Below are positions 4,095 through 63,736 of a DNA stretch of 64,000 nucleotides, piece by piece. Where the stretch lies: IMG/VR virus record IMGVR_UViG_3300003323_000920; one strand, 5' to 3'. Origin of the DNA: a virus. A program made the translations under genes and the position numbers. Each line of letters opens with the position of its first letter. The first letter of the stretch is position 1. The notes beneath the pieces are model-generated. The model made no database searches. It saw only the letters and a program-made list of their open reading frames with translations, and was not told the DNA's origin.

Positions 4095-4446
4095 TCTGTT
4101 TTTCTTCCGCTATCTGCTCCTCAATATCTATTTGTCTATACTTCGTTTTTTTCTTTGGAAACAATTCTATGTATTTACAGTGACTGGATTTCCATATGTT
4201 ATTGATACACTCCTCAACTTTTGATATCGAATCCCAATATTTAATCACAACAGTAAATATTGATGAATTAGGGTTTATGAGAATGGTTTCAAATATTTCT
4301 TGATCCGTACAGTTTATATAGTATTTAATTCCAGTTTTGTCCTTAATTTGTTTTTGATAAGAAGGTTTTCCTAATATTTTTTGCCAATCACTCGCCACAT
4401 ACATAAGCGAATAACCGGCAGTCAAAAGTTCATCAGTCGTAACCAT
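4081..4446 (-). CDS. hypothetical phage protein
   Basis: 121-aa ORF downstream of a TAnnTTTG promoter. Confidence 0.5.
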   Translation of the reverse strand: MVTTDELLTAGYSLMYVASDWQKILGKPSYQKQIKDKTGIKYYINCTDQEIFETILINPNSSIFTVVIKYWDSISKVEECINNIWKSSHCKYIELFPKKKTKYRQIDIEEQIAEEKQNAQK

Positions 4447-16508: not shown

Positions 16509-17819
16509 TCATAGAAAGAAGGCAAATCTTTCCTCCTTTTCTGTCAAAAATAATTGTATCCAATGGTTCTGAAATTCCCGGCTACAGTCCTTTAAATTGG
16601 TCTTTAAATGCTCATTTTCCTCGATAATGGTCATTACCAACTCTTTCAGTCCCCTATCAAATACTTTAGAAGCAATATGAATTTCATTAACTCCTATTCC
16701 ACCCAATTGGTGATCCCTGTCAAATTCCCCTATAAGAATTGGATAATTGACCTGGTATCCTGTTTCATTAAAGAATTCTTGAGCTTTAGTTAACATGTAC
16801 TGCGCTTTGGGTGAACCTGAAGTCTTCCTAAAAACCCCCACATTAGCATTGTCTCGCAAGCCATAAACAGTCACATCTGGGAAATTTCTCTTTATAAGTT
16901 TAGCTAAAGTTTCTGTTACAATAAAATGAGCACATTTACTCTGCTCTTCCATGAACCAGCCAGCTACTGAGCTTACTATGATTATTCTATTTCCTATAGC
17001 TGTACGCCAGTTAGGATTAAGATTTTCCGCCCATCCTAGCCACCAAAAACTCTCCTCCCAATACTCGGAGTTGCTTGAATTATTCAAAATGTTGAATGCG
17101 ATATCTTCAGTAGCTTCCGCAGAAAGAAATTTTATTATTTTACAGCTCGCATCAGAAATATTTTCAATTACCCTACTTTCATTAATTTCAAAATCTACCA
17201 GGTCATATTGGTATAATGATTTCTTCCAACCACTATAACACCTTATACCTTTCCTATACAAAAGCAATTTCTCATCCTCTTTAGTTACCGGATAAATATT
17301 ATTTCCTTTGGAAGATAGTATATCATCTATTCTATCAAAAGCGAAATATTTATCCCAATTACTTACAACTTCTTCAATTTCTGGCGTATAAGGTATATAT
17401 ATTCTCGTATAACCATTCCGTGACTCCGAATGGCTAATTTTTGTCACAATATTATATCCTCCCTCATCTAATGCATTACTGACAAATTCCCTAACTGCTT
17501 GCCATATTTCCCATTGCGGTCCCATATCAGTTGTCAAACTTGTTTCTTGATCATTTATAAGGATCTTTTCAAATGTCTTATCTCTAAACGTTACAGGAGT
17601 AGTGGTTATAATAATTTCCTCTTCTCCGGCAAATATTTTAAATGGCACTTTATTTTTGACCAAGAGGGCAATAGCATATTTATTTCCACTACCAAAGAAA
17701 CCAATTTTCGATTCATCACCTCTTTTGGTAGTTCCGCCCATTAAAATAAGAGCATTTATGTCCAGGATACCTTTGTTTTCTATTAGTAAATAATTCATTT
17801 CGCTTTCTCCATTTTGCAA
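16509..17819 (-). CDS. GHKL (HATPase-like) ATPase domain protein
   Basis: IENKG...MGGTTKR...IGFFGSGNKYAI (G2 box); REFVSNALDE; C-terminal IIEENEH. Confidence 0.7.
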   Translation of the reverse strand: MQNGESEMNYLLIENKGILDINALILMGGTTKRGDESKIGFFGSGNKYAIALLVKNKVPFKIFAGEEEIIITTTPVTFRDKTFEKILINDQETSLTTDMGPQWEIWQAVREFVSNALDEGGYNIVTKISHSESRNGYTRIYIPYTPEIEEVVSNWDKYFAFDRIDDILSSKGNNIYPVTKEDEKLLLYRKGIRCYSGWKKSLYQYDLVDFEINESRVIENISDASCKIIKFLSAEATEDIAFNILNNSSNSEYWEESFWWLGWAENLNPNWRTAIGNRIIIVSSVAGWFMEEQSKCAHFIVTETLAKLIKRNFPDVTVYGLRDNANVGVFRKTSGSPKAQYMLTKAQEFFNETGYQVNYPILIGEFDRDHQLGGIGVNEIHIASKVFDRGLKELVMTIIEENEHLKTNLKDCSREFQNHWIQLFLTEKEERFAFFL

Positions 17820-18067
17820 AAATTATCTAAAAATGTATCTATACAATTCCATATAGATATATAAACCTCGTTTTTTGAAATATTGAATTCTGACAGTTTG
17901 AAATACATCCAATCTCTATAACCTTTCTCATTCATTTCGCCTCTAAATACAACATGGAATTTATCTGGCCCGTGTTGCCTTTCTTCATAATAACTACTTT
18001 CAATATTTGGATCACGCTCATCACCAAACAGTAGTTCCACTGTTTGTTTGTAATTCTTTTCCGTCAT
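17795..18067 (-). CDS. hypothetical phage protein
   Basis: ORF coupled to the GHKL gene. Confidence 0.5.
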   Translation of the reverse strand: MTEKNYKQTVELLFGDERDPNIESSYYEERQHGPDKFHVVFRGEMNEKGYRDWMYFKLSEFNISKNEVYISIWNCIDTFLDNFCKMEKAK

Positions 18068-18179
18068 TGTGTAAAAAAGTATTTATGACTCTCTTCATTA
18101 ATTGTGGTGCAACATAGTAGGGTATCGATTAATAGGGGTGATGGATTTCTTAGGACGATAAGTATTTATTCATAAGTTA

Positions 18180-47800: not shown

Positions 47801-50800
47801 TAGATGCTATAAGGGATCTTGCACCTGGTGTAGTGTGGCAGATTCAAAAAGAGGAGGATTGTGATGAGAAATGAATTAATAAAATTTGGAAAATGGTTAA
47901 AACATCTCGATAACGGAACTGAACACTATGATCCAGAAACAAAGCAGTTCACCGAATCTATTGGCTTTAGTCCGTGGGATTGTTTTACAGACGATATAAT
48001 GACGGTTGAAGAAATAGTGAATGCATATTTAAAACAAATTTATGAAATAAAATAAACAAAAATGAAGGAATTTAATTTAGACCGGGCATTAGCCGGAGAT
48101 CCGGTGATCACAAGAATGGGTATTGCTGTTTCACAATTCGTACTATTTAATTTGACTAAAAGCTCATTTCCACTACATGGCGTATTTGAGGATGGTGTGA
48201 ATTGCTGGACTATCCATGGTCGATATGGAATCGATGGAGATCACGACTTTGATCTTTTCATGGCCCCAGTTAAAAAGCAGGAATGGATTAATATATACAA
48301 TCATGGATTTGGTAATTATCAAACCGGGGCTTGTGTTTACACCTCTCAAGAATTGGCAATACGATCCAAGGATTTATACAATAATTATGTAACATCCGTA
48401 CTTGTAAAAGAATGGGAAGAATAAAATAAACAACAATGAATAGCTACATAGAATTAATGCTCTATCTGACAGAGCTTGGAAAGAAACAAGAAGAAAAAAA
48501 CAAGGAAAAGGAATTGGAAGAACTAGAAAAACAGAATGAAATCAGAAGGAGGTTGCACAGTGAAGTTCGTCCAGATTTCTTTATTGAAGGTTATAACGAA
48601 AACAATACTAGATAATAAATGAGCGAAATAATAACAAATAAAAGAATATCAGAATTGGCGGTTCACCTTTTTCCTTCTCAAGAGGGTAATATGGAAGATG
48701 ACATAAACGCTTCAAAGAGATTTATTTTTGAACTTGGTGCTCTTCAGGGTGCGCAAGATGTTGTTGATAGAATCCATTCGGCGCTTAAAGGATTAGGTTT
48801 AGAGAAACACAGTATAGCTCTAAACGTGTTAAAGATAGCAGCTATCGAACTTCCTAAAAGTTAGAAATGAAAAAAGAGAATAAATACAATTCTGATACTT
48901 ACGAACCCAATGGAGAATTAATTCCAACTGTTATTGTAGCATTCCAGGTATGGCCGGATATGTGGATGACACTTGAGGAATATAATAGTAGGGGTAAATT
49001 CAAAGGATTGCTCAAAGATTTTAGATTTTCAATTAGAAATGTTCATCGGATTTATAAACTTTTAAAACACCCCTCCAGCTATCCAACGGCTGATTGGGAA
49101 CCATAAATAAAATGAAAACGACAAAACCAAAACCAGTTAAACAAATATATTCCCAAACTTATCACAAGGGTAAAAATATATTAGATATAGAACTCCTAAA
49201 GAGTTTTATTGAAAGAAATCTAGTAGAAGGATACATAATAAAAGATGGGAAGCTTAGTGATGGTAATTCCTTCGCGGAAATCCACTTGACAATAAATGAA
49301 GAGAAGAAAAAAAAATTTAAATGATGAAAGTAGGTAGTTTGGTAGAATGTCGTGTTGGCGGAGAATGGTATTGTAAGTACACAGATGAAGTTGTACCTGG
49401 TCCAGATAAAGACGAAATAACTGAAATTGCGGGATTTGATAAAGATGGGGATCTAATTTTTTATGAATATCCTCTTGTAACTATAAAAGGAACATTAAGA
49501 TCTTATCCTAAAAATTGCTTTAGGGAGTTACTTCCGCCAACTGAAATTAAATCGTTACTTCAACAAAAAGAAAATGTATGAACATAACAATAACAGAAGA
49601 ACAGGCTCGTAACATCAGGCACTGGAGGAAAAATGAAGAATGTACATTTGGCCGGGTTGCCGAATTAGTGTGGGAATATTTCCCAGAATTACATAATGAA
49701 ATGAAACAGAAAGGAAGTATAGTTGGGCGGGAATTATGTGAATTAGCTATGAATTTTTATGATGAAGAAATAGAGGACGGTTGGAATTAAAATAAATCGA
49801 TATGAACAGATTACCAAAACCAGAAAACAGATCAATATTTCACAAGGCAATGTTTAATAGACATAGTCATGCCGAAGAAGTATATGAATTCAATCCAAAT
49901 GAAATAATATATCGAGAAAAGGATGTACTAGAATTAATGAGATTGGTTAAATGTGAGGTATTGGATTGGGCGGCAGAAAATGCAGTTATTGAAATGGTTC
50001 AAATACCATACACCGGTGAACGATCCGGTGATCCTAAAACTGCCTGGTATCCATCATATCAAGTAAGTAAAAAATCAATATTGAAAGGTAAAACAAATAA
50101 AGATCTAAAAATATGAAAATAGAAATCCAATTAAAAGAGACATCTAAAATTATAACTCATTACAATGTAATCAATGCATATACAAAAGGGTCATTTTATT
50201 GTGTATATGAAGAAGGGGAAATAGTATATAAATACCCATTAAATAATATTTGGAGAGTAAGAGAAGATTATTAAAAATTAAATGATATGAAAACAAAAAA
50301 TAAGCCTGAAGAATATAATTTCCCAAGATGGCATAAGGAAGGAGGTTATTATCATTATCAACTCAATCGTCCATATAAAATGTATGGTGGGGCTATAACA
50401 AGATGCTGGGAGGATGAAGAAGGTCAATTCTGGGTTGATAATGGAGAGTATTGTAGTCAAGTGAATTACTGTCCCTATACAGGAACTAAAGCACCTAAAC
50501 AAATTGAAATATGAGAAGACCAAATTTAGATATAAAATTGTTTTCAGAAGTGATGCAAGCCGTAGATCACTATAATTCTCTACCCAATCATTTCACTCAA
50601 TTAGATCAATCTCAAACAGAAACACTAAGGGCTTTCTGGGATAAGTTATATGGAGGTAGCTGGGAAAGAATGAATGCGGATTATGAAAGATGGAAATCTC
50701 CCAATATACATATTGTACATCAAACGTGGGGAAGTACTACATGTGGTTGGGGAGGAATGGGTGGAGCTGCTATGACTAGTGCATATACTGTAATTATTGA

Positions 50801-50978
50801 AAATAAATGGGCAGGATTTATAGCTGTTTATTGGGATGGTAAGCTGGCATACATAGCAGAATTAGATGAAAAATTAGATAAATACCGTGCGGCCGGTTTT
50901 GAATATTTACCAGGTCTTAGTGAGGCCAGAACAGAATTAACAATAGTTTATTATCACATTACATGGAAGAAAAAATGA
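44817..50978 (+). other. plus-strand array of about 24 small hypothetical ORFs
   Basis: Abutting co-oriented ORFs, several with Zn ribbons (47436-47711 CPKC...CKEC) or TM segments. Confidence 0.6.
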
Positions 50979-51385
50979 TTTTAGCAGTAATAGGATCTAG
51001 GACATTTAAAAATAAAAAAGTCATTTATCAGGCAATAGATGAAATACGTGAGAAGTATAATATTACAGCTATAGTATCCGGTGTTTCCAAAGATGATACC
51101 AATGACACTGGGCCTGATACATATGGGCGAGACTATGCCTTAGATAATAATTTAGAATACATTGGATTCCCTGCGGATTGGGATAATATGGATCCACCCT
51201 GCGTAATTAAGTATACAAAGTTTAACAAACCATATAATGCACTTGCAGGATTTAACCGCAATACAAATATTGCAGAAACCGGATTTTTAGGATATGCTAA
51301 ATGGGATGGTAAAAGTAAAGGAACTAAAGATACAATAGATAAAATGACAGCATTGGGTAAAGAAGTAATAATTGATCTTTATTAA
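50963..51385 (+). CDS. SLOG-superfamily (YspA/DUF2493-like) protein
   Basis: LAVIGSRTF, IVSG, GPDTYG..YA, FPADWD, AGFNRN, WDGKSKGT. Confidence 0.8.
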   Translation: MEEKMILAVIGSRTFKNKKVIYQAIDEIREKYNITAIVSGVSKDDTNDTGPDTYGRDYALDNNLEYIGFPADWDNMDPPCVIKYTKFNKPYNALAGFNRNTNIAETGFLGYAKWDGKSKGTKDTIDKMTALGKEVIIDLY

Positions 51386-51618
51386 TGGAAGAAAAGAAAT
51401 ATTATATCCGCGATATAGAAACTGGATGGCCTACTGAAGTCAGTAAAGAACAATGGGAACTTTATCAGCAACTATTGGAATGCTACCGACCCAAATTATC
51501 TGATAATTTCAAAGGTAAAGTAATAATATTCGGAACAGGTGGTGATTTAGAAGGAGGAGATAACTTTAAACAATTATTTTATAATAATGACTTTAGAACA
51601 GGTAACGATTCAATTTAA
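51385..51618 (+). CDS. small ORF containing a TerL ATPase-domain fragment
   Basis: KVIIFGTGGDLEGGDNFKQLFYN aligns with TerL IPVLVGTGGSFEKGNDAKRFFEN. Confidence 0.6.
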   Translation: MEEKKYYIRDIETGWPTEVSKEQWELYQQLLECYRPKLSDNFKGKVIIFGTGGDLEGGDNFKQLFYNNDFRTGNDSI

Positions 51619-51832
51619 GATAGCAGAGGCTGAGGAGAAGAAAGCTAAGATAAAAATTGATCAAGACAAAATATTAATTGAAAAAATAGAAGCCTTACGT
51701 TACCTTCTGGCAGAAACAGTAGCAGATCCTCAAACAACAGTGGGTTCAGAAACAAGATATAAGCCAGTATTAGATGAAGGGGAAATGGAAATGGTAAAAG
51801 ACAAAATATTCGATTTAATAAAATTGTTATAA
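51587..51832 (+). CDS. hypothetical protein
   Basis: Coupled ORF. Confidence 0.5.
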   Translation: MTLEQVTIQFKIAEAEEKKAKIKIDQDKILIEKIEALRYLLAETVADPQTTVGSETRYKPVLDEGEMEMVKDKIFDLIKLL

Positions 51833-51834
51833 AA

Positions 51835-52107
51835 ATGAAGTTTAGAAAAAAACCAATAATTATTGAGGCTGTTCGGTGGGATGGAACACCGCACGCATGG
51901 AATAATATTATTGATTTGGGATGTTCCCCGACACAAGATGAAACTTGCAAAGAATATGAAATTATTATCCCTACCCTGGAAGATGGTTCATCAAACCAAG
52001 TAAAGCATATCGCTTCCAAAGGGGATTATATTATCAAAGGTATAAAAGGAGAATTTTACCCCTGTAAGCCTGAAATTTTTGAAGAAACTTATGAACTTGT
52101 AATTTAA
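51835..52107 (+). CDS. conserved phage protein (RKKP.xIEA...GDYIIKG..GEFYPCKP family)
   Basis: Recognisable motif set. Confidence 0.75.
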   Translation: MKFRKKPIIIEAVRWDGTPHAWNNIIDLGCSPTQDETCKEYEIIIPTLEDGSSNQVKHIASKGDYIIKGIKGEFYPCKPEIFEETYELVI

Positions 52108-52112
52108 GTAAA

Positions 52113-52379
52113 ATGACAAAGAGAGAATTAATAAACCAATTAGAAAATATTCCTGTATCAGACAATACTCTTATTGTTCTACAAAAAGATGCTGAAGGTA
52201 ATGGGTATAGTCCATTATCAGGATGTGAGAGGGCTATTTACATAGCCGAAGAAACTTGGTGGGGAGAGGTTTATAATCCTGATTGGTCATCAGAAGATGC
52301 TGGCCTAGAGGAAGATGAGTGGGAACAACTTAAAACTGAAAAAGACAAACAATGTATAGTATTATGGCCGGTTCATTAA
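52113..52379 (+). CDS. conserved hypothetical phage protein
   Basis: VLQKDAEGNGYSPL...VLWP. Confidence 0.6.
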   Translation: MTKRELINQLENIPVSDNTLIVLQKDAEGNGYSPLSGCERAIYIAEETWWGEVYNPDWSSEDAGLEEDEWEQLKTEKDKQCIVLWPVH

Positions 52380-52380
52380 T

Positions 52381-52548
52381 ATGTGCAACAAAGTAAAACA
52401 CAAGACTACTTACGGAGCAGCAAAACATGCAGATGCATTACGTAATAAGAAGAAATTCAAAAATAGACAGATAGGTATTTACTGGTGTTCTTCATGTGAA
52501 GATTATCATATCACCACTCATCCAGGTAAAGGATGTATAATAATATGA
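52381..52548 (+). CDS. small Zn-finger-like protein (55 aa, not in ORF track)
   Basis: MCNKVKH...IYWCSSCEDYHITT; stop overlaps the next ATG (ATGA). Confidence 0.55.
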   Translation: MCNKVKHKTTYGAAKHADALRNKKKFKNRQIGIYWCSSCEDYHITTHPGKGCIII

Positions 52549-52883
52549 ACAGAAAGAATGATTGCATTGCCTGCCGATTTAAAAGGGATGGGGTTAAAAC
52601 CAGAAGGGCTTTAGTACATACATGTGGTAAATATATAAAGGAATTGCCGCCGGTAAACCCAAATAAGGAATACTACGTAAGTTGTGATCTGTATGATAAT
52701 ACTTACGGGCCTGGGGCAATACTGGTTATGAGTAAAAGTGAAGATGGTAAAACCTTAAAGGTTGAATACTCTACAAACACCACCGTTAAGGATTTTAAAA
52801 GAGAGGTGTTAAGAATAGCTCAATATTATAATGCAGTACCAATATATGATGAAGTTACAGAGAGATCGATGAATAATAGTTAA
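52533..52883 (+). CDS. Zn-module fused to a TerL nuclease-domain fragment (likely start 52545)
   Basis: ELPPVNPNKEYYVSCDLY...GAILV...EVLRIAQYYNA aligns with TerL residues ~433-517. Confidence 0.65.
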   Translation: MYNNMNRKNDCIACRFKRDGVKTRRALVHTCGKYIKELPPVNPNKEYYVSCDLYDNTYGPGAILVMSKSEDGKTLKVEYSTNTTVKDFKREVLRIAQYYNAVPIYDEVTERSMNNS

Positions 52884-52916
52884 AAGAAAACCCCGCAATT
52901 AGCGGGGTTATTTTAT
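52883..52916. terminator. bidirectional terminator between convergent arrays
   Basis: aaaaccccgc-aatta-gcggggttatttt with A- and T-tracts on both sides. Confidence 0.85.
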
Positions 52917-55129
52917 TCTTAACATTTTACATATCCATCGAAAGTCGTTAATATCTTGACATTGACCCCGATAAACCCGATCTGCAAAATTACTATCCCA
53001 TATCTCCAAAATACTATTCGGTCTATATTCAGCCACTGTATAAGTAGCTTTATAAATCGTTCCATCATTAGCATTAAATATTCCAGAGAAGGTCCAATTT
53101 TCTCCTAGCCCTTTAATGGATTCCCTTACTTGATACCATCCCGGCTCCTTTATCAAATCGTCAATTGAAAACAGGGAAACTCTGAATTGAGCATACCCAT
53201 CATCTAATGCAATAATAGCCTCTTCTAAATCATGAAGATATGTACCATCCTCATCTTTCAATTGGATAACTTCCTTATCAAAAATTTCCACATAACCTCT
53301 AGCCCAATTAACTTCTCCTTCCCAACCTATCCTCAAATCTTCTATATCAGGGTAATAATATTTATCAACTTCCCACGTTTTCATATACTCTTTATAGTAC
53401 TCTTTGTTTACCTCAGTTTTCTTACCTGTCCGCTGATTGCAGATGTAGTATTTATTCTCCATTTTTCCATTTTAAATATGACCGAATAAAAACATACATG
53501 TTAACTCCTCTTTCATTTGTCTTTTCTACAAATGTATCAAGTAACTCCGGAGCATTATCTGATATGTCCTCATATAAGTCATGTAAGAAATAAATGTTAC
53601 GACGTACTTTAGCATTAAATGGAGAACTCCAATACTGGCTTTGATACATATAAGGCTCACCTCCATATCCTGCATCGGGTCCATAATCCAATTCATCGTA
53701 TTCTACAATCCTATACCAATTTTTATAATTGCTATTTTCATTACTAGGGTCTTCCCTTACTCCGAATGTTCTTTCTCCGAATTCTCCACACCCGGCCCAA
53801 TATTCTGTAAATCCTAGTTTATCCAGAACACCGGATGTGATAAGTAATTCTGTAAAAGGGAAAGGATATATAAGTGTTTTATTTTCCATTTAATCTCATT
53901 ATTAATTTTGAAAGATCTGCAAATTCATAATAGTCCATCCAAATACTCACTTCCACACTATCTTCCTCATTATACTTTACAAGATTTATAATGGAAGAAG
54001 TACTATGATGGAAGAAATCCCAAGTTCCCTTCTCCGATTCCGCATTTACCAAATTATGCCAGATTTCATTGTCCATTGTCGATTTCTTTAACTGTTAAAA
54101 CACTGAGAGGTAATTTTCCCATCTCAGTATGGCAAAAAATAATTGATCCTATTATTTCATCAGATAATCCTTCTTTCCTACAAGTATCTACAAATAATTT
54201 TGCCCCATCTTCTCCTGTTTGAGCAATAATATTTCTCTGACCAGGCATTGCGATTTTTTCTTCACTATCACCTATCTCATAGCAATAACCTGGAAGTATT
54301 TTATCTTTTAATTCGTCTTCGCTCATTTCTATTTATTTACAATGGGATCATCACCCTCAATACCCCATTTAGTTACTATTAAGAAACCATCTTTTACATA
54401 GTGAAGAACTATTGGATCGGGTATTTCTTTATATGCAAATACTCCGTTCAATTTATATCCTTCCATATGCATTTCAGATTTCGGAGCACAAATGAAAAAT
54501 GGTATTTTTACTCTATGTCTATTATTATAGATACTAAATTCTCGATTTACACGTTTTTCTTGTTCAACCTCTATATAACTCTCTACATGTGCGTTTTCGC
54601 TTAATGCAGCATTTGGATCTACATACCAACTACTGCTAGAAGAATATATATAATATCTATCATCATCACTCACTTTAAATGTTTCCATTTCCTTTAAGTT
54701 CTTTAAAGGTATGTCACCTTTATACATACCAGCCATACCACATATTAGTCCATACTTTTCGCATATTTGTTTTATTTGATCTAAAAATATGAATTTATAT
54801 TGGGGATATTTCTCTTTGTATTTATTAACAATATTAGCCTTCTTTTTAGCTGCATTATCTATTTCAATCCGTTTCTCCAATTCTCTTACTTGAGCAGTGT
54901 GAGTAAATCCTAATTTTTGCATCAATTGGGCCTTCTCCTTTTTGGTTTCTTCTATCCCTTTCTGACTTAAAATAAATAAAGCCTCATTGAGAGCACGATC
55001 CGCTGCACTATCAAACTCATTGTGAATCTTCTCAATCACATTAGATGTTTTTGCTTCCTGTGGAACAGTTCCGTCTGTTACGTTTTCTACAATTTTATTT
55101 TTTAGTTTTTTTAAGAAGTTAAATTTCAT
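52908..55129 (-). other. hypothetical ORFs (52908-53462, 53452-53889, 53879-54076, 54066-54326, 54329-55129)
   Basis: Co-oriented coupled ORFs; 54329-55129 has a recognisable phage family pattern (ICEKYGL...DPIVL...LIVTKWG). Confidence 0.6.
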
Positions 55130-55829
55130 ATACTTTTTCTATTAAATCAATTTGATTGTTATCATTTAATGTTATTAACCAGGGATTATTTATAGGACTA
55201 TAATCCTCATCGCAAATAGCACCGTTTAAATACGCTGTGCTGCTCCAATCGTGTATACCATATCCGAAATGAATATGACCTGATAAATGCAGCATTGGAG
55301 AAACCTCATTTATTCTTTTTCTTAAATCCTCACACCCCACTCTTTGCCCATTCATTAAATCATCTAATACTCCATGTACTGGCCCATGAGTAACCACAAT
55401 ATCTACTTTATCGGGGATATTTTTCCATACTTCATTAATCTCCTCTCCCCTATCCTTATTAAAGGCCCAAAACTCTTTTCCGAATGATGGGGTAACTGGA
55501 GAACCCCAAATAGTTAATCCTTCAATTTCACAACTACTATTTTCTAAATAATAATTCGTTCCACAATTCTTAAATTCCTCTAACGCCTCAACTAACCATT
55601 CAGGTTTCTCTCCAGTTGGGTTTTTCTCAGGATCAAATGATCTGTCATGATTTCCTGCAATAAAAACTCTATAGGTTGCCAGTTGTCTTTTAAACCATTT
55701 CAAAAATCGCTCAACCTCTCTCCTTTCGCCTACTCCCGAAATATCTCCTCCACATATTAAAAGGTCACAGGGGGGAATTTTTACTTGGTCATGGAAATTA
55801 TGAGTATCTGAAAAATATATTATTCTCAT
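55119..55829 (-). CDS. calcineurin-like metallophosphoesterase
   Basis: SDTH, ICGGD, IAGNHD, VTHGP, GHIH. Confidence 0.92.
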   Translation of the reverse strand: MRIIYFSDTHNFHDQVKIPPCDLLICGGDISGVGERREVERFLKWFKRQLATYRVFIAGNHDRSFDPEKNPTGEKPEWLVEALEEFKNCGTNYYLENSSCEIEGLTIWGSPVTPSFGKEFWAFNKDRGEEINEVWKNIPDKVDIVVTHGPVHGVLDDLMNGQRVGCEDLRKRINEVSPMLHLSGHIHFGYGIHDWSSTAYLNGAICDEDYSPINNPWLITLNDNNQIDLIEKVYEI

Positions 55830-56260
55830 TCGTTCACTTTTTCTTTCAATATTCCTAATTCGACGAATTCATATCTCACAGCTACCCAGTCCACATATGC
55901 TCTTGGATGTATCGGAAATTCCTCATCATAGAATACACCATCTATATTGTAGATTAACGGGCATCCTATTGCCGCATCATCCACATAACGATGAGCATAA
56001 ATTTTTGGAGATTTCGTCCAAATTTTCTGGGAAGGATTTTCATTCACGCCATATAACTCAATACCTCTTTTTTTAAACCAGTTAGCAGCCTCCTCCAATT
56101 TCTCATCTGATCTCATCGTGTTAAGAATGATTTTATGACCATTTGCCTGGATATCAAGTAACACATCCACTGCATCTGGTACATCCTTACCAACTAATGG
56201 GTAATCGTGGGTTACAACGGTCCCATCAAAATCTACAGCTATATAAACCTCCTTATTCAT
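55826..56260 (-). CDS. HAD-superfamily hydrolase-like protein
   Basis: IAVDFDGTVV motif I; ILNTMR; YVDD. Confidence 0.85.
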   Translation of the reverse strand: MNKEVYIAVDFDGTVVTHDYPLVGKDVPDAVDVLLDIQANGHKIILNTMRSDEKLEEAANWFKKRGIELYGVNENPSQKIWTKSPKIYAHRYVDDAAIGCPLIYNIDGVFYDEEFPIHPRAYVDWVAVRYEFVELGILKEKVNE

Positions 56261-56400
56261 TTCAATCTTTCAAAAATTCTAGTGCTGAAAAAATATCTAC
56301 GACTAATACAATCCCCAATAATACACACAACTTATATTCAGTTATTTCCATTGATATTCCTACAACACAGAATAGTGTGTAGGCTATTATTCTTATTATT

Positions 56401-57669
56401 TTATAAAGGGTTTTGTTCATTCATTTCGGTTTTATCTTCTACTGCTTTCATCATTAATTCACCCTCTTTAGCTAGGGGATCATGTGTTACATACAAATGT
56501 CCAAATGGGGATCTAATAGATGTGTAAACATGGGTATCAACACTTGGATCTACATTGTCACCAAAGAATATCCACCTGCCCAATTCTTTTAGATGATTTT
56601 TAATATCCAACTGCAATCTATCCATTTCACTTTCTGTTAATAAAATTTCAATACTACAGTCAGGTCCTAAACCATTTTTGGTTTTGAACTCGTAAATCTT
56701 TTCTTTGACTATTTCCAATAAGGTATTATTCATGACTACTTTTTAATATTTCAAATCGTTTAATTAACTCACAAAACAACATATCTGGGTCTTTATTAAA
56801 ATTCACTGGGATCTCTAAACACCAATCCTTTCCACCAGACATTGCCAACCTCGTAATCCAATCCTTACATTGATCTATTAATTCTTCATCAGTCAAGGTA
56901 CATCCTATGTCTTCACTCATAATAGTAGGTTTGTTTAACCTGGTGAATAATGGGTTCCTTTTCCCCTCTTGCATTTATCCTGGTACCAAAATTGAAATAG
57001 GTTTGGCCTTTCAAATAGGCTTTAAGATGGGCATTTTCAAATTTTAACGCTTCTTTAGGAATGGGATCACCATGTTTGTCTGTAGTTCGTGTATATACTA
57101 TACCTAAAAATCTACGTCTGAGTTTTTGTTCACTTTTACTTTGGGTCATTTACAATATAATATATTTATCACCTGTCTGTCCATTTACTAAATGATGTGC
57201 ATCCCACTCATTTGCTTCTCTTATTCCAATAAAATTTGGAATAATTTTTTCATTAAGATAACCCAATACTTTGGTGTCTAATGGAAATTTTTGAAGAAAT
57301 TCTATTAACTGCCCTACATTTTCTATGTAATTATAGATAGGTGGTGGAGGTGTTGGATTATCCTTCCAATACTGGATCATATCGGGATGATAAGTAGTAC
57401 CAGTTGTAGTTGTACTACTGGAGGTAGGGATCTCACTATTCATTCACATTAACATTTTCTTTTGATTTCTCTTTCTTTTGTCTTTTTTGGTGAGACACTG
57501 GAGTTTTGAGTCCTGAATTATGTAATAAGTTATTTATTAAAGTATTTACACTTTCTGGATCACCAAATGTTCCTAATGAGTCATATACTAAATTCTTTAA
57601 GTCATTAACACTCATTAACACGAATTCCTTGTCATTTGAATTAGGTACCAATTTTCTTTTTATTTTCAT
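56401..57669 (-). other. hypothetical ORFs (56401-56733, 56726-56974, 56913-57149, 57150-57443, 57436-57669)
   Basis: Co-oriented coupled ORFs. Confidence 0.55.
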
Positions 57670-57685
57670 ACTTTGATATTTTATA

Positions 57686-57757
57686 CAAATTTACTTATTA
57701 TTTTCCAAATTTTTTTATTTTTCTATTTTTCTATTTGAAATGTTTTCCCTATATTTG
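57686..57757. promoter_or_regulatory. divergent Bacteroidota-type promoters
   Basis: caaattta (57686-93, minus) and tatatttg (57750-57, plus) with an A/T motif between them. Confidence 0.65.
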
Positions 57758-57764
57758 CATTGTT

Positions 57765-58100
57765 GAAGTAAAATACTCCCCCTACTTATGCCCTGATTTC
57801 AGCTGGAGCAATCCAGTAGGTTGTAAGGATTCCATGAGAGGGCGAGATTACCTGGTGAGAAAGGATAAATATCTGGTTCAGCATGTCCAGTTTTTTGTAT
57901 AAAATACTGGACAATTTTTGCAGGATTTTTATCTGGTCATTCTCATAATTCCAGGTTTAACAGGACAATCCAGAAGTTCCCTACCATAAAACGTGGTAAG
58001 CGAAGTGGAACCATTGTAATAAAACCAGGTAACCCAGCGGTGTTGGGCTAGAATTCAGGAAAGAAACTGCATTCGATTGGTAAAAGGCGCTGGAAAGAAA
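57765..58100 (+). ncRNA. candidate ~330-nt structured ncRNA or leader
   Basis: Starts just after a promoter; 9-bp long-range stem, GCAA tetraloop, possible pseudoknot, at least four more hairpins; no ORF of 60 aa or more. Confidence 0.5.
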
Positions 58101-58254
58101 TGTTAAATCTTCTTCTTTATTTTCAAATTTTTGCTCCCTTTTAACCCTACGTGTATCTACTAAGATTCACTAGTCTCAAATTAAAGGTCTAACAAACCAC
58201 CATCCCAGATGAAGGGATTGTATTTTAAAGGGGTGCGATTTTTAATTCAAGCAT

Positions 58255-58638
58255 ATGGAAGCGAAATATAACCCTGAAACTACAGACAGTAGCGATAAAA
58301 AATTGCAGATCAAACTTTTGGAGTACCAGAAGCAAGATGAAGAGATAATTGAACATTATCGAAGAAAAATGGGTGTGTATTTACCCAAACTTTCTACCAT
58401 TGAAACTTATAATGGCCTCATAGAATACGTACAGGAAATGTATTTGAATGGGATGATAGTTGGGGATGAATTTGTGATGAAGCCTTCTGAGGAACAAAGG
58501 AACAAATTAATAGATTCCACCTATTTATCCTTATATGGAGATTTAAAAATAGGAGAACCAACTGGATTTTATAACCATTATCAAGAGGGTGGATTTGTAA
58601 TTGAAACATTTTTTGGTGTTAAAATAATTATAAAATGA
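58255..58638 (+). CDS. hypothetical protein
   Basis: First plus-strand ORF after the structured region. Confidence 0.55.
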   Translation: MEAKYNPETTDSSDKKLQIKLLEYQKQDEEIIEHYRRKMGVYLPKLSTIETYNGLIEYVQEMYLNGMIVGDEFVMKPSEEQRNKLIDSTYLSLYGDLKIGEPTGFYNHYQEGGFVIETFFGVKIIIK

Positions 58639-59050: not shown

Positions 59051-59653
59051 ATGTTGAAAATAGGTATAACAGGTGGTATTGGTTCCGGCAAAAGCACGGT
59101 GGCAAAAATATTTGAGCTGCTGGGTATTCCCGTATATTATGCGGATGCGGCTGCCAAAGACATTATGAACCGTGACCCGGAACTGAAGGCCCAGGTGCAG
59201 CAGAATTTTGGCGCGGATATGTATGACAGTAACGGGCAGCTGGACCGTAAACGCCTTAGCAACATTATTTTCAACCACCAGGAAAAACTACTACTGCTGA
59301 ATTCCCTGGTGCACCCGGCTACCATCCGCGATTCTGAGCAATGGGCTCTGAGGCAAAAATCACCCTATCTACTGAAAGAAGCCGCCCTGCTGTTTGAATC
59401 AGAATCTTTTCGTTACTTGGATAAGATCATCGGCGTATCTGCCCCGCAGCCTTTGCGCATCTTACGTACCATGCAGCGGGATAAGGTTAGCCACAATGAA
59501 GTTTTTGCCCGTATGCATAAACAAATGGATGAAACCATTAAAATGCGTTTATGCGATTACGTGATCTATAACGATGAACAGCAGATGGTAATACCGCAGG
59601 TGCTGAGATTACATCAAGAATTAAACTTAATGAGCCGGAACGCCTCTACATAA
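59051..59653 (+). CDS. coaE: dephospho-CoA kinase
   Basis: KIGITGGIGSGKST, ADAAAK, LDRKRL, LNSLVHP, EAALLFE, R..QM, DYVIYND; GC about 47-53% vs about 30% in flanks. Confidence 0.95.
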   Translation: MLKIGITGGIGSGKSTVAKIFELLGIPVYYADAAAKDIMNRDPELKAQVQQNFGADMYDSNGQLDRKRLSNIIFNHQEKLLLLNSLVHPATIRDSEQWALRQKSPYLLKEAALLFESESFRYLDKIIGVSAPQPLRILRTMQRDKVSHNEVFARMHKQMDETIKMRLCDYVIYNDEQQMVIPQVLRLHQELNLMSRNAST

Positions 59654-61377: not shown

Positions 61378-61695
61378 ATGCCAAGAAAGAAAATCTATGT
61401 TGAGATGGAATTGGAGTGGGCTGAAGTACAGCTCCACAATTGGAGAGAATATATAGATGCCAATCCTATAGACCTTTTAACTGATAGAATTGAATGGGTG
61501 GATGGAAAATATGGATTAACCCCCAAAGTTATTCAATCAAAAGAAAATCAAATAAAGTCTGTTCAAGAAACCCTCGTTAAATATCTAACCCTTTTAAAAG
61601 AAGTGAATGAAATGCGTGAAGGTAGAGAAATGAGGGTAGCAGCCAAAGGAGATATAGAAATACCCCATAGAATGAAAAAGTCTGATGGAAATTAA
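61378..61695 (+). CDS. conserved protein directly upstream of TerL (possible small terminase)
   Basis: Position and helical character only. Confidence 0.35.
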   Translation: MPRKKIYVEMELEWAEVQLHNWREYIDANPIDLLTDRIEWVDGKYGLTPKVIQSKENQIKSVQETLVKYLTLLKEVNEMREGREMRVAAKGDIEIPHRMKKSDGN

Positions 61696-63736
61696 GACTA
61701 CAGAATTTTTTAAAAATTATCATCTACTGCCTAAAAGAAATACCCCAGAATTCGAGCAATTAGTTGACGAAGAAATTGAGAAATGTAAAGGTGGTGTTAC
61801 AGTCAATGGAATATACTTTTCCGGTTGGCTCTATTTTTATTTGAACCATTGGTGGATTCGTGTAGATAAAAAAGATAATTACGGAAATATTGTAAAAGAA
61901 CCCCTCCAACCATATTTAAGGGATAACGAATGGATCCGGTCAGAAGCTTTAGAACAATGTCGCCAACAGATGAAAGGCTACATGGAAATTGGTCTAAGGC
62001 AAGGTGGTAAATCTGAATTTGAGGCATCTATTACTGCTTACAATGCATTAATGTTCAAAGATACTCAAAATGTAATTGTTGGTGGTAATGATCCTGACTT
62101 AGGATTGTTAAAAGATAAAATAGATTTTGGTTTAAAAAGAGTTTGGGAAGGACTGGCAATTCCCCGGTTGGATAAAGACTGGAGGAAATCGATGGTCAAA
62201 TTGGGCTATAAACAAAAAGATAATGAAGATGAAATATGGTCCTATTTAATTATCAGAAACGCAGATGGGGGCGATAATACCGAAGCACCAGCAGGTACAA
62301 CCGCTAAATCCTTTGTAATGGATGAAGTGGGTAAATACGAATTTAGTCCTGTATTTACCGCCGCAAAACCTGCATTTATATCAGAATTTGGTTGGCGAAC
62401 TATTCCAGTATTAGTAGGAACTGGTGGTTCTTTTGAAAAGGGGAATGATGCCAAAAGGTTCTTTGAAAATCCAGAAGCTAACAACTTCTTAGCATTTGTT
62501 GATCCTGAGACTGGAGCTAAAACCTGTCTTTTTATGCCGGGGTGGTATCGGCAAGATTGTAAATATGATACAACATTAGATAGGTTTCTTATAGATGTTA
62601 GGGGAATGGAACTCAGTGATGTTTCTGAATTATCCAAGATTCCTATTAAAGTTGCCGATAAAGAAAGGGCCATTGCCAGAATAAAAGCTGATAGAGAACA
62701 AAAAGCAAAGGATCCAGATCAAACAGATTATTTAAAGGAAATAATGTATCATCCGCTTACTACTGCGGAGTGCTTTTTATCTTCGGCTACAAATTTTTAT
62801 AATGGTGAATTAGCAGCAAAGCAAAAGACCAAATTAATTGAAAATAATGTTACTGGATCCTGTGTATTTCTAAAACACGATGGTGAAAAAATAATACATG
62901 AATTTGTTCCTCATAAACGACCTATTTCTTCTCACCCAGTTAAAAAAACTGAAGATTTAGATGCCCCTATTGTGATCTGGGAAATGCCCATCTCAAATCC
63001 ACCATATGGTCTTTATGTAGCTGGAGTTGACCCATATAGACAAGATCAAGCTACTTATAGTGATTCGTTAGGGGCTGTATATATATATAAAAGAATGCAT
63101 GATATTGCTGGGGAAAAATTGCAAGATGCATTTGTTGCGGCGTATGTTGCCAGGCCAAAAGACAAAGGTAAATGGGAAGAGCAAGCCCGATTACTTATAA
63201 AATATTATAATGCGAGAGCTTTGTGTGAAAATGATGAAATAAGTTTTATTGATTACATGATCGACAAAGGAGATGAGCATTATTTAGAACCGCAGCCCGA
63301 TTGGCTTAAAACTATTGTACCTAATTCCAAAGTGGATAGAAAAAAGGGTATTCATAGGTCAAGTGAAAGTATAAGAACACACCTCAGAGGTTTATTCAAA
63401 ACCTATATGGAGGAAAAAATTCACACAGAAAAAGATGAACATGGTTCAATCATAAAGGAAACCTATGGTATTTCCCGCGTACTTGATCCAATGTTGTGTG
63501 AAGAAGTTGCTACTTGGAATATAGATGGAAACTTTGACCGTGAAGTTGCTGCATCCCTGGCAATCGCACAGGCCAGGCATATGGATCCAAGAATTGGAAA
63601 AGTTAATTCAGCCGAACAAGATCCTCGTTACAAATCCTACTTTGAAAGAAATAAAAGTAACCCCACTTCCCTTTTTAAAGAAAAGAAAAACAGTACAATA
63701 CGAAAAGGAAGTAGAATAAAAAGATTATTTAAATAG
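61685..63736 (+). CDS. terL: terminase large subunit
   Basis: Walker A GLRQGGKS, Walker B FVMDE, VGTGG, nuclease VAGVDPY, YYNA...EN, GNFDR. Confidence 0.93.
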   Translation: MEIKTTEFFKNYHLLPKRNTPEFEQLVDEEIEKCKGGVTVNGIYFSGWLYFYLNHWWIRVDKKDNYGNIVKEPLQPYLRDNEWIRSEALEQCRQQMKGYMEIGLRQGGKSEFEASITAYNALMFKDTQNVIVGGNDPDLGLLKDKIDFGLKRVWEGLAIPRLDKDWRKSMVKLGYKQKDNEDEIWSYLIIRNADGGDNTEAPAGTTAKSFVMDEVGKYEFSPVFTAAKPAFISEFGWRTIPVLVGTGGSFEKGNDAKRFFENPEANNFLAFVDPETGAKTCLFMPGWYRQDCKYDTTLDRFLIDVRGMELSDVSELSKIPIKVADKERAIARIKADREQKAKDPDQTDYLKEIMYHPLTTAECFLSSATNFYNGELAAKQKTKLIENNVTGSCVFLKHDGEKIIHEFVPHKRPISSHPVKKTEDLDAPIVIWEMPISNPPYGLYVAGVDPYRQDQATYSDSLGAVYIYKRMHDIAGEKLQDAFVAAYVARPKDKGKWEEQARLLIKYYNARALCENDEISFIDYMIDKGDEHYLEPQPDWLKTIVPNSKVDRKKGIHRSSESIRTHLRGLFKTYMEEKIHTEKDEHGSIIKETYGISRVLDPMLCEEVATWNIDGNFDREVAASLAIAQARHMDPRIGKVNSAEQDPRYKSYFERNKSNPTSLFKEKKNSTIRKGSRIKRLFK

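Follow-up and report, generated by a model that had tools for sequence, protein, structure and literature searches.

A family of small phage proteins related to a segment of the terminase ATPase domain, encoded in the accessory gene arrays of a phage with a crAss-type terminase

The large terminase subunit (TerL) is one of the main phage proteins detected by bacterial immune receptors, among them Avs1-3 and Upx, and a few phage proteins other than TerL, namely T4 vs.8, Ksap1 and Ksap2, have recently emerged as unexplained ligands of terminase-sensing receptors. T4 vs.8 is a stand-alone homolog of the TerL ATPase domain and activates EcAvs2 on co-expression (PMC13601566). Ksap1 (74 amino acids, aa) and Ksap2 are small phage proteins that bind and activate KpAvs2, and they occupy the terminase pocket of Avs2 (PMC11564622, PMC13601566). 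For these TerL-ATPase-like accessory proteins, all of which bind Avs2, an anti-defense role has been suggested (PMC13601566, PMC11564622). Upx is a sensor of TerL ATPase domains and, according to an AlphaFold 3 prediction, threads their unfolded core strands by beta-augmentation; Hydrobacter penzbergensis is the source of one tested Upx (PMC13601566). Here we analyze a 64,000-nucleotide stretch of viral DNA (IMG/VR record IMGVR_UViG_3300003323_000920, hereafter the window) and describe open reading frame (ORF) 51385, which encodes a 77-aa protein (51385-51618, plus strand). By its sequence this protein belongs to a large, unannotated family of mini-proteins that almost certainly derive from TerL, a variant within the emerging class of stand-alone terminase-like accessory proteins. 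An earlier, sequence-only reading of the window had proposed that ORFs 51385 and 52533 carry pieces of the ATPase and nuclease domains of the phage's own TerL, that ORFs 54066, 56401 and 58255 resemble pieces of crAss-type major capsid proteins (MCPs), and that these fragments act as decoys for immune sensors. All five ORFs are present in the window at these positions.

ORF 51385 consists of two parts. Its N-terminal module (aa 1-26; 51385-51462, plus strand) forms a beta-hairpin and the start of a helix, is specific to the family and has the consensus K-Y-Y-I-x-D-I-E-S-G ... E-V-x-K-E, while the TerL-derived segment (aa 27-74; 51463-51606, plus strand) comprises a helix, a strand with the motif GTGG (motif III) and a second helix. 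A three-sequence profile searched against 1.84 billion representatives returned 252 clusters (at 50% identity) at E<1e-3 and 88 at E<1e-10, nearly all of them proteins of 60-120 residues that align end to end. The family alignment, A4, holds 143 sequences, and 149 representatives were examined. The window protein scores 107.6 bits (E 7e-32) against the family hidden Markov model (HMM) and displays the hairpin module, the G-T-G-G segment and a length within 60-120 aa. Only four positions of the family, namely E12, G14, G50 and T51, are at least 90% conserved, and conservation is highest in the TerL-like motif. A spurious repeat match to a 2,412-aa BRCA2 protein (P0257) among the profile matches was dropped.

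Annotation resources are silent on this family. It has no Pfam model and no PHROG family of its own, and a word-based homolog search with ORF 51385 found only the query itself. A tblastn search of 50,697 phage records with ORFs 51385 and 52533 gave nothing significant and no terminase match; a PDB sequence search with the TerL and family profiles gave no usable match and no solved relative of the family. The domains fused to longer members contain no informative Pfam domain. For comparison we used eight related loci (L001-L003 and L005-L009), and homologs of ORF 51385 at 44-52% identity occur in three of them (L003, L007 and L002). The homolog in L002, the closest relative of the window (TerL 87% identical), lies at L002:2126-2344 and is interrupted in frame by a TAG at codon 24, where other members have W or Y. 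Recoding is not evident, as TAG also terminates two of the 19 genes called in L002, and a nonsense mutation or a sequencing error is the probable cause of the in-frame TAG; the stop codon fits a dispensable accessory gene.

How secure is the relationship with TerL? The window TerL (61685-63736, plus strand; 683 aa) is a crAss-type large terminase (phrog_6681, E 6e-76) without a match in a Pfam scan, and has a Walker A motif, G-G-K-S, at 107-110 and a Walker B motif, F-V-M-D-E, at 210-214. The segment that matches ORF 51385 (TerL aa 220-269; 62342-62491, plus strand) lies between Walker B and the lid region and contains the invariant G245-T246-G247-G248. In a pairwise blastp search among 351 ORFs, TerL is the top non-self match of ORF 51385, a marginal one, with nine of 21 residues identical around G-T-G-G (24.6 bits, E 0.17). 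At the same place tblastn matched the TerLs of four related loci (L001, L003, L007 and L008) with E 1e-4 to 4e-3. ORF 51385 ranks first against a TerL-family HMM (E 0.01; the next ORF, E 1.9), and TerL is its sole match in a PHROG scan. Profile-profile comparison of A4 with a 118-sequence TerL alignment (hhalign) pairs aa 27-74 with TerL 220-269 at Prob 96% and P 1.7e-9; with the C-terminal half of the family alone P is 4.6e-11. The P value fell as the profile deepened (2.9e-5, then 2.2e-6, then 1.7e-9), and the matched span of 45-48 columns includes both flanking helices. Scanned singly, 41 of the 143 members match phrog_6681 (best E 4e-10), and any other PHROG is matched by at most five. In the opposite direction, complete six-frame translations of the window and of nine loci were searched with the family HMM, which retrieved only family members, the N-terminus of a 184-aa gene and, at aa ~225-279, the TerL ORFs, all nine of them (E 9e-7 to 4e-4). 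As a control, the 46 other small genes between 46 and 61.7 kb reached a minimum P of 0.021 against TerL. Family and TerL share the order of elements: a helix, the G-T-G-G strand and a helix that ends in F-Y-N-P.

Based on these comparisons, the C-terminal half of ORF 51385 almost certainly descends from the TerL ATPase domain, and the claim of the sequence-only reading that this ORF carries a segment of that domain is borne out by the hhalign result, the PHROG matches and the reciprocal HMM search. The relation is an old one and does not go back to a recent duplication, in agreement with that reading. Going by the usual order of TerL ATPase motifs, we take the matched block to be the motif III (coupling) strand with its flanking helices; the name is given by this order because no solved TerL could be aligned by sequence. 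The family match begins after TerL 214, and a global alignment must skip the Walker B strand. Walker A (G-x-x-x-x-G-K-S/T) is absent from ORF 51385 and from all 149 representatives, and the matches of family members to the TerL HMM all lie at HMM position 213 or later, which leaves the whole family without either Walker motif. The proteins therefore cannot be ATPases. Neither does ORF 51385 have an RNase H-like nuclease domain with acidic catalytic residues. The N-terminal module of the family has no significant counterpart in TerL, its best alignment (P 0.07) placing I-x-D-I-E-S-G on F-V-D-P-E-T-G at TerL 271-278 (62495-62518). These TerL residues lie immediately after the homologous block, a hint of circular permutation on which we do not rely.

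A few relatives reveal how such a protein may have arisen. In four of the 149 representatives (P0186, P0194, P0218 and P0272) the motif III part is followed by [GS][VI]DPY, which corresponds to G-V-D-P-Y, the first strand motif of the TerL nuclease domain. This motif occurs four times in 3,768 family tail residues and nine times in 238,609 six-frame background residues, all nine in the nine TerL ORFs. Tails of members align best to TerL from 443-444 (443-470), with P 2.3e-4, 2.1e-4 and 0.035. Since some members run from the motif III segment into the nuclease strand motif, the founder of the family was most likely, judging from these alignments, an internally deleted copy of TerL, a 'mini-TerL'. 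This copy would have lost its N-terminus with both Walker motifs and also the lid and linker (roughly aa 270-440); most lineages would later have lost the nuclease part too, and the small N-terminal hairpin-helix module would have been acquired later.

The predicted structure divides the protein in a similar way. The AlphaFold 2 (AF2) model of ORF 51385, built from the deep alignment, has an overall predicted local distance difference test (pLDDT) score of 81, with the hairpin (residues 6-19) and the helix (21-34) at pLDDT 90-97. In the monomer, residues 35-59, which include the GTGG strand, are modeled as coil at pLDDT 52-69, and short helices follow at 60-71. A fold search of the model against PDB gave no match. 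A GTGG segment that is conserved without an autonomous fold in the model is what would be expected of a segment that folds on a partner.

ORF 52533 was thought to carry the complementary nuclease piece, and here the evidence is more mixed. The gene probably starts at its fifth codon, because an ATGA there overlaps the upstream stop, and then encodes 112 aa (52545-52883, plus strand) with a CxxC...HxC module and a beta-beta-beta-alpha-beta C-terminal domain. The proposed counterpart of this domain is the N-terminal half of the TerL nuclease (aa 431-515; 62975-63229, plus strand), which holds G-V-D-P-Y; ORF 52533 could span this half of the nuclease at most. One full-length homolog is known, P0123, at 63% identity and in syntenic position in L009, and searches of viral and metagenome contigs found no further relatives. 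The alignment made by eye in the sequence-only reading was recovered as the best one (aa 34-104 against TerL 430-513), with a P value for the single sequence (hhalign, 0.3) that is not significant; nor is P 0.027 for the two-sequence profile against TerL, over 21 columns at the Y-Y-N-A helix. Pfam and PHROGs gave ORF 52533 no terminase match. Eight of the ten nearest structures listed for its ESM Atlas model (pLDDT 0.62) are terminase large-subunit clusters, at TM 0.49-0.57 over aa ~39-116. Language-model feature matches of both homologs name only the sets Terminase_6C and T7_RNaseH-like, at 0.80-0.83, and are to be read as leads only. In the AF2 model (pLDDT 53, from two sequences) the elements follow the order beta-beta-beta-alpha-beta-alpha, which agrees in register with the TerL alignment; fold searches with this low-confidence model returned GNAT acetyltransferases and no terminase and are uninformative. 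The mini-TerL relatives imply that both TerL pieces once resided in one protein, which indirectly favors a TerL origin of ORF 52533, as does the gene order in L002, where the 51385-like gene is followed at once by a gene with the N-terminal module of ORF 52533. Taken together, we consider it probable that ORF 52533 carries the N-terminal half of the TerL nuclease behind a module of zinc-binding type.

The CxxC...HxC module itself spans 30 residues (52545-52634 in the window, L002:2328-2417 in L002, and P0124), is 80-90% conserved and occurs on two unrelated C-terminal parts. Its carriers P0124 and the L002 protein are 77 aa long, with a C-terminus unlike that of ORF 52533. The small accessory proteins at these loci are modular mosaics.

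What might a fragment of the terminase motor do for a phage? We propose that the TerL-derived segment is a binding element that, as a beta-strand, would pair with a partner whose usual contact is the same strand of TerL; this reading is suggested by the fact that the segment is the most conserved in the family and yet is predicted not to fold alone. The likeliest partner would be a host terminase sensor that binds unfolded or nascent strands of the TerL ATPase, as predicted for Upx. The small protein, presumed to be expressed early from an accessory small-gene array, would then occupy the sensor without providing the full set of strands needed for activation. We advance this sensor-blocking mechanism, which draws on the structural model, as a tentative proposal that may well prove wrong. 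The gene lies apart from the structural module, among small genes that overlap in arrays, and this position supports its accessory character. As the segment corresponds to a buried core strand, it cannot mimic the folded TerL surfaces read by Avs1-4 (PMC13581612, PMC13601566); it could mimic unfolded TerL only, the state that Upx is predicted to bind (PMC13601566). Hydrobacter penzbergensis, the source of the tested Upx, is a member of the Chitinophagaceae, the family whose genomes hold TerL relatives of this phage. In its strictest form the proposal would make the family a counter-defense in which one unfolded strand of the TerL ATPase core is shown to Upx-like sensors, blocking them before TerL is made, with some members also offering the first nuclease strand; taken as a whole, this specific version is rather unlikely.

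Several points weigh against the sensor-blocking proposal. The binding mode of Upx is itself only predicted and involves four strands (beta1, 4, 5 and 6) as opposed to one in the small protein (PMC13601566), while Ksap1, Ksap2 and vs.8 activate Avs2 and do not block it, so that a piece resembling TerL could count against the phage. The similarity can be detected only in the most conserved parts of TerL, and a retained 'active-site' motif may therefore reflect detectability and not selection. The host is inferred. As regards ORF 52533, its sequence statistics are not significant and its two structure models disagree, one pointing to terminase and the other to GNAT.

A different view would be that descent from TerL is irrelevant to the function and that the N-terminal module and the conserved GTGG segment were exapted for an unrelated accessory role, for instance to bind a nucleotide or some protein of the host. 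The part that AF2 folds with confidence is the N-terminal module, which is reused on the 184-aa protein encoded at 52908-53462; modularity is common in these arrays, as seen in ORF 52533, whose zinc module is found joined to two different C-terminal parts, and the ORF 51385 family has neither a Pfam family nor a structural match. This view sits uneasily with the most conserved residues, which lie exactly in the TerL-derived motif, and with the second TerL motif, which some members carry in TerL order and which implies that likeness to TerL was kept for some time. We regard exaptation as possible, although on balance unlikely.

Alternatively, the fragment might act on terminase itself, binding the phage's own TerL or that of a co-infecting relative by pairing with, or replacing, the homologous strand. 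It could thereby time or restrain the phage's own packaging, or be dominant-negative on a relative, with an effect comparable to that of satellite Gpi. Small inhibitors that bind TerL are known, as in the case of PLE Gpi (PMC11417361), the TerL-derived strand is predicted to be unfolded alone, and the gene appears dispensable, judging from the L002 copy with its stop codon. Yet the segment is as similar to the TerLs of relatives as to its own, so there is no sign of discrimination between self and non-self or of co-evolution, and a phage that carries a poison of its own motor would need an immunity mechanism, of which none is evident here. A role in packaging or in competition between phages is improbable in our assessment.

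The possibility that these ORFs are decaying, functionless remnants of a duplicated or partly copied TerL gene is far less plausible. It could draw on the in-frame TAG of the L002 homolog, on ORFs 54066 and 56401, which have no homologs in syntenic relatives, and on the single full-length relative of ORF 52533. By contrast, ORF 51385 has a family of 252 or more clusters at 50% identity, whose members are of consistent length and share near-invariant residues, and the ORFs that separate it from ORF 52533 are unrelated genes and do not encode pieces of TerL in other frames. Family size and conservation exclude debris for ORF 51385; the sequence-only reading had argued against it on other grounds.

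The complete model of that reading, an array-wide set of TerL and MCP fragments acting as decoys against sensors of the Avs, CapRel and Lit type, retains very little credibility, and only its TerL part finds support. A buried core strand cannot reproduce the surfaces recognized by Avs1-4 (PMC13581612, PMC13601566), and the capsid part did not survive profile comparison. The window does not include this genome's MCP; five relatives supplied the profiles used here, which cover portal, MCP and six further structural proteins. Against the lineage MCP profile, hhalign gave P 0.25 for ORF 54066, 0.055 for ORF 56401 and 0.7 for ORF 58255, or 0.39 when the four-sequence family of ORF 58255 (with homologs in L002, L003 and L009) was used. 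The match of ORF 54066 to Pfam Crass_capsid (PF23898), at 12 bits and E 0.064, is below noise level and well short of the 27-bit cut-off, and ORFs 56401 and 58255 have none. ORFs 54066 and 56401 lack homologs in the syntenic arrays of relatives. Across 47 small genes (46-61.7 kb) and the eight structural profiles, 376 hhalign tests in all, the minimum P was 0.007, as chance would give, so that no small gene in this interval resembles MCP, portal or the six other proteins. On these sequence comparisons the capsid resemblance is not supported and would be noise, unless the phage's own MCP differs greatly from those of the five relatives.

Finally, a chance or convergent glycine-rich turn resembling TerL motif III, to which the short identical core (G-T-G-G), the marginal pairwise blastp score against the phage's own TerL and the BRCA2 repeat protein among the profile matches might point, can be set aside as extremely unlikely given a match over 45-48 columns with both flanking helices that strengthens as the profile deepens, holds in both search directions and in an independent library (PHROG), and is joined in four members by a second TerL motif in TerL order.

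The phage itself can be placed through its terminase. The window has a guanine-cytosine (GC) content of 33%, and the nearest isolates by TerL are Leptolyngbya phage Lbo-JY46 (38% identity) and Cellulophaga phages phi17:2 and phi4:1 (29%). More than 2,000 metagenomic relatives of TerL were found, some of them inside Chitinophaga genomes at 58-59% identity, and because of these homologs the host family is likely to be Chitinophagaceae. A TerL identical to that of the window occurs in one 5.2-kb root-metagenome contig only (L004). A look for sequencing runs containing the region listed none, with no RNA run either. In relatives, the portal gene and a crAss-type MCP gene (PF23898) lie directly downstream of TerL. 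Downstream of the point where the window ends, the portal in L004 (L004:3722-5220) is split over two frames, aa 1-196 and then aa 195-498, with the switch near an A-rich stretch at ~4303-4309, and is either an assembly error or a frameshift; portals of relatives are 855-874 aa long. Within the clade some TerLs (P0049, P0061 and P0109) reach 913-1,035 aa through an insertion at Walker A, after window-TerL aa ~110-120, and LAGLIDADG/Hom_end domains in two of these insertions identify them as P-loop inteins. An intein or homing origin of the TerL fragment was considered and rejected, the inteins of related TerLs being located at Walker A (~aa 110) and not at motif III. Many accessory genes are common to L009 and the window (60-96% identity), but over its first 150 residues (17658-18114, compared with window 61685-62140) the L009 TerL is only 40% identical, which indicates that the arrays and the terminase have different histories.

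Three arrays of small, frequently overlapping genes make up the study region. The first, on the plus strand, ends at 52883; the second occupies 52908-57669 on the minus strand; the third, again on the plus strand, is a small-gene unit that starts at 58255 and leads into TerL. Recognizable array genes encode a YAcAr/SLOG protein, a metallophosphoesterase and a dephospho-CoA kinase. The last (59051-59653, plus strand) is a full-length CoaE (E 1.8e-45), encoded in a stretch of higher GC content that immediately precedes the packaging genes. Translational coupling in operons, as had been suggested from the letters, is supported by the start/stop overlap TAATG at 51383-51387 and, if ORF 52533 starts at its fifth codon, by ATGA at 52545-52548. 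Between ORFs 51385 and 52533 lie unrelated genes, one of them PGDYG-like. A decayed second TerL spread over several frames was rejected, as these intervening ORFs are unrelated and no other ORF matches the TerL HMM. A short tract at 52012-52122, in or adjoining a 90-aa gene (51835-52107), shows 76-85% nucleotide identity over ~80-110 nucleotides to distant phages, where its counterparts are 'PGDYG protein' or hypothetical genes of Streptococcus, Acinetobacter, Enterococcus, Staphylococcus and Clostridium phages; such nucleotide conservation across distant phage groups is unusually high.

The 184-aa gene of the minus-strand array (52908-53462) carries in its N-terminal ~34 aa (53361-53462, minus strand) a second copy of the N-terminal module of the ORF 51385 family. 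The family HMM matches its aa 3-34 (E 3e-6), and its C-terminal domain is an unrelated one; a similar hairpin motif is repeated after the module copy. A tblastn search ties the gene both to the family member in L007 and to the gene directly downstream of that member, which in L007 encodes the equivalent of the C-terminal domain on its own. The window gene resembles the product of a deletion that fused two genes. In another array, on the contig of P0218, a 270-aa protein has RyR and faint Acb2/Tad1-hairpin Pfam matches and a DUF4031 protein is also encoded; these surroundings may be an anti-defense neighborhood.

What are the implications of a family of this kind? It adds proteins cut from TerL and reduced to one conserved strand with two flanking helices, in phages whose likely hosts belong to a family, the Chitinophagaceae, that carries Upx. 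It bears on why phages keep extra terminase-like proteins and on whether a fragment can block sensors that read unfolded terminase. If the family does act as a decoy for Upx-like sensors, it would be the first anti-defense protein made from a fragment of the very protein that is sensed. Whatever its function, it illustrates clearly how an internal piece of an essential enzyme can give rise to a new small gene.

Set beside the systems already described, the family has likenesses to each and a character of its own. The crAss-type TerL (phrog_6681) is the source of the segment, to which rare members add the first nuclease strand motif; unlike TerL, the small proteins have neither Walker motif, no lid and no complete nuclease, are about one-tenth of its length and are not terminases. 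PLE Gpi, a small protein from a mobile element, a Vibrio satellite, acts on the packaging motor and would be a possible analog if the family modulates packaging (PMC11417361). It is encoded by a satellite, is not reported to be TerL-derived and has been shown experimentally to bind TerL (PMC11417361), whereas for ORF 51385 such binding is hypothetical. Ksap1 and Ksap2 resemble the family in their similar size, in being non-essential and lineage-restricted and in their place among accessory genes. They have a reported terminase-ATPase-like secondary structure, have been proposed as possible anti-defense proteins, have no detectable sequence homology with TerL and are modeled as a sheet of four to six strands; the ORF 51385 family, in contrast, has clear TerL homology and a model composed of a hairpin, helices and an unfolded strand. 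T4 vs.8 keeps Walker A, Walker B and the whole ATPase fold, unlike the ORF 51385 family, which retains ~48 residues around motif III, has no Walker motifs, carries a separate N-terminal module and is found in phages with crAss-type terminases from environmental samples. Like T4 vs.8, ORF 51385 is a phage accessory protein that is encoded apart from the terminase gene and is homologous to the ATPase domain of the phage's own TerL.

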